Of a stretch of 50,710 nt of DNA, positions 33,713 to 36,000 are shown one piece after another (position 1 is the stretch's first letter; the number at the start of each line of letters is the position of its first letter). This DNA is from a virus (lineage: Duplodnaviria; Heunggongvirae; Uroviricota; Caudoviricetes; Ackermannviridae): positions 113,328 through 164,037 of the IMG/VR virus record IMGVR_UViG_2974616520_000001. One strand, written 5' to 3'. The translations under genes were made by a program, and so were the position numbers. The notes beneath the pieces are model-generated. The model saw only the letters and a program-made list of their open reading frames with translations, was not told where the DNA came from and ran no database searches.

Positions 33713-33737
33713 TTCAATAAGCATTAACCAGTATATT
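33713..33737 (+). promoter_or_regulatory. TTCAAT-N13-TATATT promoter
   Basis: TTCAATAAGCATTAACCAGTATATT. Confidence 0.65.
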
Positions 33738-33811
33738 TGTTTCCAGGCAAGCGAGCCTGGCCCAACGAGAGAAGGGCTGTGAAATCGCAGAGTATCAAAG
33801 CGAGGTAGCGC

Positions 33812-33961
33812 ATGGTTCTGTTAATCATTGCCCTGCTGCTTATCCTCGTAACTGGCTCCTCATTTACCCTGATGAAAGCCAGTTGGTTCCTCCTCGTGGA
33901 ATCATTCAAAGCGAACGGAACATCTTCGGCTCGTGAGAGCGCAGTACACTGGGTACTGTAG
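33812..33961 (+). CDS. Putative 49-aa hydrophobic membrane peptide (not in the track)
   Basis: GAGGT SD 6-7 nt before ATG; MVLLIIALLLILVTGSSFTLMKASWFLLVESFKANGTSSARESAVHWVL*; downstream of the promoter at 33713. Confidence 0.45.
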   Translation: MVLLIIALLLILVTGSSFTLMKASWFLLVESFKANGTSSARESAVHWVL

Positions 33962-33988: not shown

Positions 33989-34013
33989 TTCAATAAAGAT
34001 TTTGCAGTATAGT
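33989..34013 (+). promoter_or_regulatory. TTCAAT-N13-TATAGT promoter for the ncRNA cluster
   Basis: TTCAATAAAGATTTTGCAGTATAGT. Confidence 0.7.
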
Positions 34014-34157
34014 TAAGTCTCAAGGGGAAAATAGCACAGTGGCGACTCTTAAGGAAGCCAGTATGCCCTAAGCCGGGGAATTGTGTGAATAGGTCAGCAT
34101 CAACCCACTGCCGTCATAAGGGGACGCCCTAGACCGTACGAGATACGAAACATCTCA

Positions 34158-34307
34158 TCTGAATGACCTGTAGCTCAGAAAGTTACCACTGACAAGTGTC
34201 CGCCTGTGGCCAAGGCACGAATCAGGAGAGGAACGAGAGCAACTCGATGGCGAGTCGACACCATCATTGAGAAGGTCGGGGGCTGGTAATCCCTCAGGTC
34301 ATTCAGA
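34158..34307 (+). ncRNA. tRNA-like structured RNA with an expanded D-loop and a 13-bp closing stem
   Basis: TCTGAATGACCTG (34158-70) pairs perfectly with CAGGTCATTCAGA (34295-307). Inside are TAGCTCAG..GAGC (D-stem), an AGGTC variable loop and a degenerate T-arm. Confidence 0.55.
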
Positions 34308-34308
34308 A

Positions 34309-34399
34309 CCCATAATCATGTACAGTTCCAGCGTATGCAATCAGATGAGTGGCCATAATCTGAATGTGACAATGGGCCAAGACTGTACATGATTATGGG
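34309..34399 (+). ncRNA. Structured RNA or inverted repeat with an 18-bp perfect closing stem
   Basis: CCCATAATCATGTACAGT (34309-26) / ACTGTACATGATTATGGG (34382-99); internal TCAGAT/ATCTGA hairpin. Confidence 0.55.
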
Positions 34400-34495
34400 G
34401 ACTGCCAGAACTACAGCCAACGGACTTTCACACCAGGACGCTGCCATGGATCTGGGTAAACTTTCCCCACCAGAAATGATTAAAGTAACGGTTTG

Positions 34496-34520
34496 TTCAA
34501 TAAGTAAAATGCAGTATAGT
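34496..34520 (+). promoter_or_regulatory. TTCAAT-N13-TATAGT promoter upstream of the tmRNA-like RNA
   Basis: TTCAATAAGTAAAATGCAGTATAGT, nearly identical to the 33989 box. Confidence 0.7.
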
Positions 34521-34526
34521 TAGTCA

Positions 34527-34836
34527 CATAGCGGCAACCTGAGTGAGCAGTTCACTCAAATGTTCAGTCAGGTTTTCGTTCTCGTCGTAGCGATTATGCG
34601 GGTTTTTAGAAACAGACCAAAAATATAATCGCAAATGATAATGAGTTCAAAGTAGCAGCCTAACGGCCAATGCGCTTTCTGGGTATGTGTCTGCCCCCAG
34701 TTACCAATCGACCGGAGTGTGTCCCCGACTCTGTATTAAAGAACGGGGAACATAACTGAATGTGTGCTCGAGAGGTTCGATTCCTCTTTGCCTCGGCAAG
34801 TCCAGATGGTGACGGAGAGCATCCAATCAGTTATGT
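34527..34836 (+). ncRNA. tmRNA-like RNA, circularly permuted, with a closed acceptor stem (YrlA-like tRNA-mimic module)
   Basis: Tag-like frame GCA AAT GAT AAT GAG TTC AAA GTA GCA GCC TAA (34631-63) after AAAAATATAATC. H-type pseudoknot at 34713-49. 10-bp helix 34750-59/34827-36 enclosing a T-arm AGAGG-TTCGATT-CCTCT, a TTGC-CTCG-GCAA hairpin and a D-arm TCC-AGATGGTGAC-GGA. The 5' end is estimated from the promoter at 34496. Confidence 0.7.
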
Positions 34837-35066
34837 CTGGCACACCGGGTATAACGATGACTTGTCACATTTTTGCAGATTTAGAACACAGGCAGTGTCC
34901 TGTAAATGAACTGAAGCCCTAAGAAGTGGATGTTCCAGAGCTTGGCATCTCTGTTATCGAAGCTGCTTTGGATTGAAGTGAGAAATACATCATAGACAAT
35001 TTAAACCTGCTTATGATCGGATTTTAAAGGCCACTTCAGTACACGTCATCCCCACGTTACGGGGAA

Positions 35067-35162
35067 CACAACTGAGAGGCTCCTGGTAAGAGTCGAAGGG
35101 TAAGGCGCATCGTGTAGATGGAAGCGGGTTCAACTCCTGCTATCAGTGGCCTCTCAGTTGTG
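35067..35162 (+). ncRNA. Minimal tRNA mimic inside a 14-bp closing stem
   Basis: CACAACTGAGAGGC/GCCTCTCAGTTGTG. Core has a CTGGTA/TATCAG acceptor-like stem, a D-like arm, a 4-bp/5-nt stunted anticodon arm and a T-arm GCGGG-TTCAACT-CCTGC. Confidence 0.6.
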
Positions 35163-35685
35163 GTGAAGTAGTAATTCAACAGCGGACATCGGGGTGTCGG
35201 AACGTTCACACCGCCTTCAGCTGCAGCCACAACAGTCGTGATCAAAGGAGAGCGCTCCAAAGCGTGAGAGCGTTGAAGTGCCGGTTACAGCTCCGGTGAG
35301 GCGGGAGAAGTATCCTGGGGATTAATACCAGGTGTTCGGAGACCCAACGAAAAGACTACACCACCATCACGACAACTCAACCTGGTCATTGCGACTATCA
35401 ATCGCTCACAGAGGTGACAGGGTTGTTACAAGCCTCGTTTGGTCCGAACGTCAGAGGACAAGTAGAGGGGAAATGAATCCCATTGTGGTCTTAGTACCCT
35501 CCGCGAACTGAGTTTGTATCTGGTTGTCATCGTCCTTTCATCGGTCTGATCAACTGATTTGGGATAAGCCAAAAGACCATGCGCGGGGTCGGCGTTGACA
35601 ACACAAATATGAATTTGTTCGGCAGGGAGTTAACTTCCTGGATGGGTGCTGACTGTGTCAACCCTGTCGAACATCTTAAACAAAT

Positions 35686-35831
35686 GCTGGTCGATTATAA
35701 GTGACGATTCGATGGAACCAATAACACCCCTGCGGCGGCAGAAAGGATGTTGGGAAAGTCGGATAACAACGAAGGCAATCGTGGGTGGGATGGCCTCCCC
35801 CTTCTCGGTTCGAACCCGAGGGCCAGTACCA
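35686..35831 (+). ncRNA. Enlarged (146-nt) tRNA-like RNA ending in an encoded CCA
   Basis: GCTGGTC (35686-92) pairs with GGCCAGT followed by ACCA; perfect T-arm CTCGG-TTCGAAC-CCGAG; interior has several hairpins and no canonical anticodon arm. Confidence 0.55.
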
Positions 35832-35834
35832 AAG

Positions 35835-35910
35835 TTCGTGATAGCTCAGTTGGTAGAGCAGCCTCCTTTTAAGAGGCAGGTCACTGGTTCAAGTCCAGTT
35901 CACGGCACCA
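35835..35910 (+). tRNA. trnK: tRNA-Lys (anticodon UUU)
   Basis: 76 nt; TAGCTCAGTTGGTAGAGC D-arm, GCCTC-CTTTTAA-GAGGC anticodon arm, ACTGG-TTCAAGT-CCAGT T-arm, encoded CCA; 1:72 mismatch. Confidence 0.95.
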
Positions 35911-35964: not shown

Positions 35965-36000
35965 AGCCCCGATACAAGGAATTGTGCGGGGCTTCTTTTT
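35965..36000 (+). terminator. Terminator closing the tRNA/ncRNA cluster
   Basis: GCCCCG...CGGGGC followed by TTCTTTTT. Confidence 0.7.

Follow-up and report, generated by a model that had tools for sequence, protein, structure and literature searches.

A probable row of small structured RNAs, with a headless tmRNA-like RNA among them, at the tRNA-Lys locus of an Erwinia-type phage

The interval 33990-35910 of the stretch of DNA analysed here (the window: 50,710 nucleotides, positions 113,328 to 164,037 of the virus record IMGVR_UViG_2974616520_000001, the complete 164-kb genome of an Erwinia-type phage of the Ackermannviridae) is served by two predicted promoters and one predicted terminator. 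We propose that this locus is probably a row of separate small structured RNAs encoded on the + strand, and neither one giant RNA nor junk. An array is preferred to a single giant RNA because a promoter lies inside the locus, because modules are swapped between relatives, and because single modules stand alone in unrelated phages. The first unit, behind promoter P1, would yield a leader RNA, M0, and a cloverleaf that cannot decode, M1; the second, behind promoter P2, would yield a "headless" RNA that resembles transfer-messenger RNA (tmRNA), a mimic of the elbow of transfer RNA (tRNA), modules framed by hairpins, a tRNA-like RNA bearing CCA, and tRNA-Lys. An earlier note on this DNA had proposed a polycistronic non-coding RNA locus, and that proposal stands as a prediction from sequence: the region is non-coding, reads on the + strand, and runs from promoters of its own to a single terminator.

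The closest relative found is the Erwinia phage phiEa2809 (Ackermannviridae, Nezavisimistyvirus), 96% identical to the window across the aligned 87%; in its record, a tRNA-Lys is the sole annotation inside a 3.4-kb span free of coding sequences. Comparison of the two genomes reveals turnover within the array: in phiEa2809 both the cargo of module M3 and the segment 35234-35431 are replaced. More generally, the sets of modules differ between genera, with M2, M5 and the 146-nt tRNA-like RNA being lineage-specific.

The two promoters, described earlier as near-identical, are an exact repeat: the motif occurs with 0 mismatches at P1 and P2 and with 3 mismatches at 33713-33739, for a chance expectation of 0, and the single terminator is found where the array ends (Table 1). 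The stretch 34481-34527, which contains P2, is 81-100% identical at 13 related loci. Between promoters and terminator, the claim of almost no coding sequence agrees with the open reading frames (ORFs) of 49-96 amino acids inside 33990-35910, which have 0 matches to PHROG families. ARAGORN in its tRNA and tmRNA modes, and Rfam at gathering thresholds and at E<=10, return just tRNA-Lys together with sub-threshold fragments of tmRNA, and within the region the Rfam tRNA model matches 35835-35907 only: there is, as had been said, a single real tRNA, which is also the single canonical one across the 164-kb genome. The Rfam scan had been suggested by the earlier note; tRNA-Lys is its sole match above threshold, and neither GOLLD nor ROOL appears, even at E<=10.

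The tmRNA-like RNA of unit 2 is recognized by a short reading frame, the tag, followed by a hairpin around its stop codon and by two pseudoknots. Over 131 loci, the tag has a length of exactly 10 codons in all but two (129/131), of the form AN[DE]......[AV]A, and its 35 nucleotide sequences encode 20 peptides. Codons 1-3 and 10 vary at the third position alone, and the mean entropy by codon position is 0.61, 0.50 and 1.11: this drift of third positions points to selection on the translated peptide. The region upstream of the tag aligns best to the consensus of permuted and beta tmRNAs (CAUAAAUGC.AACGAU). Total Rfam tmRNA scores range from 22 to 34 bits, 31 bits for the window, against a cut-off of 47, and ARAGORN calls no tmRNA in any of the 125 distinct sequences of the module.

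The structure of this RNA was evaluated on 63 representatives of a set clustered at 88% identity (64 clusters). In the hairpin around the stop codon and in the first pseudoknot, pairing amounts to 89-98%, and 11 of the 13 pairs have compensatory changes. The second pseudoknot was counted with a structure-aware script, since MAFFT misaligned it across subfamilies: it is present in 62 of the 63 representatives, with 6 recurrent types of stem S1, many types of stem S2, and many compensatory variants. Taken together, the helices of the tmRNA-like RNA have a covariation score of 0.332, compared with 0.172 for shuffled sequences, none of which scores as high in 500 trials, and with values no higher than 0.11 once the partners have been slid; an all-against-all comparison of columns is too noisy, owing to two deep subfamilies. 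The helix directly 5' of the tag, at the position of the tmRNA pseudoknot PK1, is nested, 82.9% paired, and covaries weakly.

What stands upstream of the tag is an arm predicted to be antisense to the host tmRNA. The duplex formed by the arm of the window with tmRNA has an energy of -33.2 kcal/mol, against -24.3 +/- 2.8 in shuffles, and each of the 45 distinct arms finds its best duplex with the tmRNA of E. coli at nucleotides 67-105 (45/45; -25 to -38 kcal/mol, against -24 +/- 2.5 when shuffled). These values were computed with arms of 36 nt; RNAduplex applied to the whole leader and the whole tmRNA gave a sprawling structure. The target spans the 3' strand of PK1, the resume codon, and codons 2-5. 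Taken alone, the arm is weakly structured (z of -0.37). The target shows little or no variation in most of the 18 Enterobacterales sampled, among them Erwinia, Klebsiella, Salmonella and Proteus, and differs most in Yersinia; since Erwinia is among those with so constant a target, the pairing is plausible in the natural host.

The tmRNA-like module is not confined to this genome. The 190 nt around the tag are conserved at 72-80% in Grimontviridae (7-11/SE131), Schitoviridae (Bp4, Pylas), Drexlerviridae (Snitter), phage DS8, and other Ackermannviridae. At least 130 phage or prophage loci, in several families, carry the module, more than 100 of them contributed by a pattern scan of IMG/VR, and in the records examined it has no annotation. 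It adjoins tRNA genes at the Schitoviridae, Grimontviridae and Drexlerviridae loci that were looked at, and in DS8 it lies behind an apparent sigma-70-type promoter of its own. Among complete E. coli genomes, 137 of 5426 (2.5%) have it, again unannotated in the records listed. In the papers searched, we located no description of such a headless RNA for any enterobacterial phage.

In the single E. coli prophage examined, a lambdoid one, the module (L131:3501-3688) sits between the gene of the Q antiterminator and the holin gene. This interval is where the late promoter is located, and Stx phages carry tRNA genes there. A module that starts with GUCCAGACGAUAUCUGAGUGAC, downstream of the tag RNA, is common to a DS8-type phage (L009/L061) and to the N4-like phage Bp4 (L003); phages of these kinds exchange many cassettes of small RNAs.

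We now turn to unit 1, which extends from P1 to about 34400 and has homologues in Taipeivirus, Kuttervirus, Miltonvirus and related loci. The consensus fold of M0, over 9 sequences from four Ackermannviridae lineages, has 24 pairs, 10 of which show compensatory changes; one of its helices reads GCACA/UGUGU in the window, ACCCGC/GCGGGU in phiEa2809 and GCCUGC/GCAGGU in phiMAM1. In M1, RNAalifold finds compensatory changes at 12 of 24 pairs, including every pair of the acceptor (7/7 among four lineages), whose 7 bp are prolonged to 13 bp. Its D-stem, GCUC/GAGC, is invariant, and the D-loop carries a variable insertion of at most 55 nt, the maximum being attained in the window. Where an anticodon loop is expected, M1 has an extended arm capped by a conserved loop of 10 nt, CRAGUCGACA, and its T-like arm combines conserved G-U pairs with a non-canonical T-loop of the CUGGUAA type. 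Judged as a decoding tRNA, M1 has no 7-nt anticodon loop, no canonical T-loop and no CCA; conserved though it is, this tRNA look-alike is unable to decode, and it is not a pseudogene. The last module of the unit, M2, has no further copy elsewhere in the genome or in other phages, being present just in phiEa2809 and in this genome.

The closing stems on which the earlier note was built are exact: perfect Watson-Crick helices of 13 bp (34158/34307), 18 bp (34309/34399), 10 bp (34750/34836) and 14 bp (35067/35162), which lengthen to arms of 20-23 nt (23, 20, 22) once mismatches are allowed. Compared to dinucleotide shuffles, the four modules that they close fold with z between -2.97 and -6.19 (Table 1), and the segments 34020-34157, 34840-34960 and 35163-35560 with z of about 0. 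The region is thus not uniformly hyper-structured, since several stretches between modules fold no better than shuffles. The earlier proposal had been staked on conservation or covariation of the stems among related phages, and it is not refuted on that count. The acceptor or closing stem at 34158-34307 covaries at 7 of its 7 pairs, and those at 34750 and 35067 belong to a covarying frame.

This frame, CAYAAC-helix-cargo-helix-GUURUG, fits the stems of M3 and M4, and recurs in the arrays of T1-like phages, N4-like phages and prophages. The motif pairs are continued by at least 6 bp of helix in 40 cases out of 388, compared with 3 out of 388 in a slid control, and 24 covarying variants of the helix were counted. 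Helices of 16-22 bp would make natural substrates of RNase III. The frame suggests a cassette system of general use for the small RNAs of phages.

In the fold of M3, the terminal helix is long and supports three elements: a canonical T-arm, an acceptor-like hairpin that is short (4-5 bp) and closed, and a D-like hairpin. A similar layout, with a 4-nt linker in place of the acceptor hairpin, is found directly 3' of the tmRNA-like RNA at loci L012, L014 and L120. In phiEa2809, the outer stem of M3 encloses unrelated cargo, with no T-arm; M3 is thus not obligatory for the tag RNA. The earlier note counted four T-arm-like or tRNA-like domains; T-arm-like hairpins lie at 34771-34787, 35124-35140 and 35806-35822, and a degenerate one within 34158-34307. 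The third of these hairpins belongs to the 146-nt tRNA-like RNA, which has an acceptor of 7 bp with two G-U pairs, a canonical T-arm, discriminator A and an encoded CCA, and has a homologue in phiEa2809 only. Upstream of it lies a motif of 33 nt. The 269 phage records in which it was found, whose names are those of Ackermannviridae genera, each have a single copy, at least 90% identical, between flanks that diverge. The motif contains UGGUCCGA, identical to the sequence that, in animal Y RNAs, forms the 5' strand of the helix bound by Ro. No match to TROVE (Ro60) or to SmpB was found in the complete phage genome.

Table 1. Features of the array and of its flanks, with positions in the window.
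Feature	Position	Strand	Evidence
P1, predicted promoter of RNA unit 1 (-10 TATAGT; shared TTCAATAA-N7-GCAGTATAGTTA motif)	33989..34015	+	exact motif; 100% identical in phiEa2809
M0, conserved structured leader RNA, unit 1	34020..34157	+	9 sequences, four Ackermannviridae lineages; single-sequence fold z 0.27
M1, cloverleaf tRNA look-alike	34158..34307	+	RNAalifold covariation; z -2.97; uncalled as tRNA by ARAGORN and Rfam
M2, 18-bp perfect hairpin module	34309..34399	+	z -6.19; single copy
P2, predicted promoter of RNA unit 2	34496..34522	+	exact motif
5' leader hairpin of unit 2	34528..34570	+	34528-34630 fold z -3.31; hairpin interior differs between genera
Predicted arm antisense to host tmRNA nt 67-105	34571..34608	+	duplex energy compared with shuffles
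Headless tmRNA-like RNA	34571..34749	+	tag frame, stop-codon hairpin, two pseudoknots
Tag frame GCA...TAA (ANDNEFKVAA*), upstream U(-5)A(-4) context	34631..34663	+	codon-position entropy; match to permuted/beta tmRNA resume region
Hairpin around stop codon (like tmRNA helix 5)	34649..34678	+	98.4% paired, 4/4 pairs compensatory
First H-type pseudoknot after the tag	34679..34712	+	two helices 97.7% and 89.1% paired, 7 pairs compensatory
Second H-type pseudoknot (CGGAG/CUCUG and UCCCCG/CGGGGA)	34713..34749	+	structure-aware count over 63 representatives
M3, tRNA-elbow mimic in YrlA order	34750..34836	+	z -4.25; minimum free energy (MFE) fold equals centroid
M4, 14-bp helix (22-nt arm) carrying a T-arm and a stunted body	35067..35162	+	z -5.49; frame common to other phages
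33-nt motif containing UGGUCCGA	35431..35464	+	motif search of phage records
146-nt tRNA-like RNA	35686..35831	+	acceptor and T-arm in MFE and centroid folds; z only -0.9
tRNA-Lys(UUU)	35835..35910	+	ARAGORN and Rfam; genome-wide tRNA scan
Intrinsic terminator closing the array	35966..36000	+	hairpin plus U-run; -18.4 kcal/mol, z -3.8

Some further observations concern the same features. The 33-nt motif also occurs at L007:4152-4184, L006:3386-3419 and L132:3001-3036, and a long-range helix reminiscent of Y RNAs, 35432-35448/35766-35790, is a candidate drawn by hand. The arrays of Kuttervirus and Taipeivirus (L006:2700-2830; L035, L058, L065, L081, L096, L007) have in common a tRNA-like RNA of about 130 nt, with a 6-bp acceptor and a 3' end made of the T-arm, AACGGC, U and CCA; its layout is like that of the 146-nt CCA RNA, its sequence is not. 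Around the array, two of the three flanking ORFs compared to PHROG have a match, the third being the 49-aa ORF at 33812-33961, and a Pfam search with six flanking ORFs gives none. This 49-aa ORF is hydrophobic and sits behind the weaker copy of the promoter, at 33713; in phages T765 and PhiSH19, the equivalent position is occupied by small ORFs whose start is likewise hydrophobic. Outside the window, on the - strand, G000:C1:35712-35739 is a further promoter of the TTCAATAA...GCAGTATA type, whose spacer has one additional base; the genome-wide promoter scan used such a longer spacer, which excludes the P1/P2 type, and yields no total number of promoters.

Candidates for a chargeable domain of the tag RNA were also considered. 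Pairing the 5' GCGGCAA of the transcript with the sequence that follows the T-arm gives no G3-U70 pair. The ...UCCA ends of the Kuttervirus relatives and the 146-nt CCA RNA have no G3-U70 either, and no consistent link to the tag module. For T1-like phages, a helix that would close the tag RNA by joining its two ends was set aside, the strands being part of neighbouring hairpin modules. More generally, the T-arms near the tag module vary in position and in sequence between phages.

How does the tag RNA compare to known tmRNAs (SsrA; RF00023, permuted RF04321, RF01849-51)? It shares with them the GCA resume codon, the U(-5)A(-4) context, a 10-codon tag of the AND...AA type, a stop codon within a hairpin, and pseudoknots 3' of the tag. 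Unlike them, it lacks the G3-U70 acceptor with a free CCA and stays below the Rfam cut-off. It also appears to have no PK1 in cis: only the weakly covarying nested helix was found at that place, and the 5' arm, antisense to the host tmRNA, would pair instead with the 3' strand of the host PK1. Other derivatives of tmRNA are borne by phages, whether full-length (Bxz1-type, Bacillus phage G) or reduced, as in mycobacteriophage DS6A, whose "TLD-only" (tRNA-like domain) tmRNA is thought to inhibit the host tmRNA (PMC4131195). The present RNA differs from that of DS6A in keeping the opposite half, tag and pseudoknots rather than the tRNA-like domain, and in its Enterobacterales hosts. The 2014 survey of tmRNAs reports phage tmRNAs in mycobacteriophages and Bacillus phage G only, and names no enterobacterial phage (PMC4131195); the 2025 update of the tmRNA database counts 79 phage sequences, left unnamed in the accessible part of its text.

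The other modules have likenesses of their own. M3 has the permuted order of the YrlA-type bacterial Y RNAs (PMC4201824), with T-arm, acceptor-like and D-like hairpins on a long terminal helix, but its acceptor-like stem has only 4-5 bp, the phage has no Ro60/TROVE gene, and no covariance model of Y RNA or YrlA matches the window at E<=10. STnc100/PasD (RF02076) is a family of prophage small RNAs of E. coli and Salmonella (bioRxiv 10.64898/2026.05.13.724894). The module that follows the 33-nt motif in Klebsiella phage T765 (L007:4179-4393) matches it with 48.8 bits for a cut-off of 47, which links the RNA arrays of virulent phages to the small RNAs of lambdoid prophages; the same GUGGUGAA...CACCAC frame recurs in T1-like arrays. 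The window itself has no match, and the upstream 33-nt motif is its sole common part with T765. Finally, the tRNA cluster of phage T4 holds stable RNAs that are not tRNAs, species 1 and 2 (rnaC and rnaD), co-transcribed with the phage tRNAs. Likened to them from descriptions, the present array is larger, has more types of modules, and includes the tag RNA.

Several points weigh against our proposal. About half of the length of the region (34840-35066, 35163-35430, 35531-35685) is neither exceptional in folding nor conserved beyond phiEa2809, and might represent spacers or remnants of decay. M2, M4 and the 146-nt tRNA-like RNA are beyond covariation testing, their sole homologue being nearly identical, and so is the pairing of the arm with tmRNA, because the host target barely varies. 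A selected tag implies translation, but there is no evident route for loading it on a ribosome without a chargeable tRNA-like domain, and a G3-U70 acceptor with a free CCA, looked for near the tag module, was not found. The promoters, the processing sites and the ends of the RNAs are all predictions.

Four other explanations can be put to the same data. The modules could be tRNA pseudogenes and debris, a decayed cluster that now serves as spacer around a working tRNA-Lys. Relatives do hold several real tRNAs at this locus, many modules retain pieces of tRNA, such as T-arms or a start in GUAGCUCAG, and several segments, confined to this lineage, have folds no more stable than those of shuffles; yet compensatory changes have kept the helices of M0, M1 and the tmRNA-like RNA across genera and families, the 10-nt loop of M1 and the 33-nt motif are near-invariant amid diverging flanks, and the dedicated promoters are conserved. 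We find it distinctly unlikely that decay explains the locus, and it probably holds for some spacer segments only. The tRNA-shaped modules could instead be decoys, sponging the defences of the host that target tRNAs (PrrC, RloC, nucleases of the retron or VapC types) or enzymes that bind them, with tRNA-Lys(UUU) replacing the target of PrrC. The sole real tRNA is indeed Lys-UUU, the substrate of PrrC, and M1, M3, M4 and the 146-nt RNA, although unable to decode, retain the elbow or the acceptor end of a tRNA. The general idea has been described (PMC10264068). Here, however, no module has an anticodon stem-loop like that of a known nuclease target, and M1 has its conserved 10-nt loop in that place. 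We regard decoys as unlikely, while noting that they are compatible with an array of small RNAs and not exclusive of it.

The remaining two treat the locus as a single object or as DNA. The suggestion of the earlier note that the locus might form one large RNA of the GOLLD/ROOL kind, assembling as a whole, is not supported. The size, the absence of ORFs and the adjoining phage tRNA gene are what such a large non-coding stretch would have, but Rfam, which includes both families, gives no match to a large RNA at E<=10 with permissive filters, a promoter lies inside, and modules turn over independently, being swapped or missing in close relatives and found singly in other phages; we consider it extremely improbable. 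Only slightly less so is an element acting at the level of DNA, in which the inverted repeats would be hairpins or cruciforms, recombination sites, or insertions resembling miniature inverted-repeat transposable elements. The perfect repeats of 18 bp and 14 bp in lineage-specific insertions do look young, and the exchange of cargo inside conserved stems suggests recombination at the stems. On the other hand, the conserved helices include G-U pairs, whose complements on the opposite strand would not pair (in M1 they would be A-C mismatches); the elements contain a tag frame, pseudoknots and T-arms; promoters and terminator frame them; and no second copy of M2 turned up, either in the genome or among other phages. 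We hold a DNA-level element to be very improbable.

If the locus is a row of small RNAs, its long transcripts would be cut at the closing helices, which resemble substrates of RNase III, and at the tRNA-like ends, by RNase P and 3' trimming, and the products would act on the translation and tRNA machinery of the host. The tmRNA-like RNA would pair with the host tmRNA across the resume codon, so that the tagging of products of stalled ribosomes would be blocked or redirected. A bolder conjecture, which we hold to be doubtful, is that the tag RNA docks by its antisense arm on the alanine-charged tmRNA of the host, masks the resume codon, and substitutes its own resume context and tag. The products of stalled ribosomes would then receive a tag written by the phage, in infected cells and in lysogens that express the late region of the prophage, with the tRNA-elbow mimics and the CCA-bearing RNAs as helpers, or as sponges for SmpB, RNase P or EF-Tu. 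Docking on the host tmRNA would make the tag readable without a chargeable domain of its own and, if true, would be a virus-programmed, trans-acting form of trans-translation with two RNAs.

The usual annotation of a phage tRNA locus consists of tRNA genes and empty space; here, the space holds conserved, covarying RNAs that mimic parts of the translation apparatus. One of them, the tmRNA-like RNA, is common to at least four named phage families, to unclassified phages, and to 2.5% of complete E. coli genomes. The array suggests that this phage tampers with the quality control of translation in its host. If tagging is indeed blocked or rewritten, this would be a new kind of conflict between virus and host over translation quality control, and would offer a way to test directly why trans-translation is needed by some phages.

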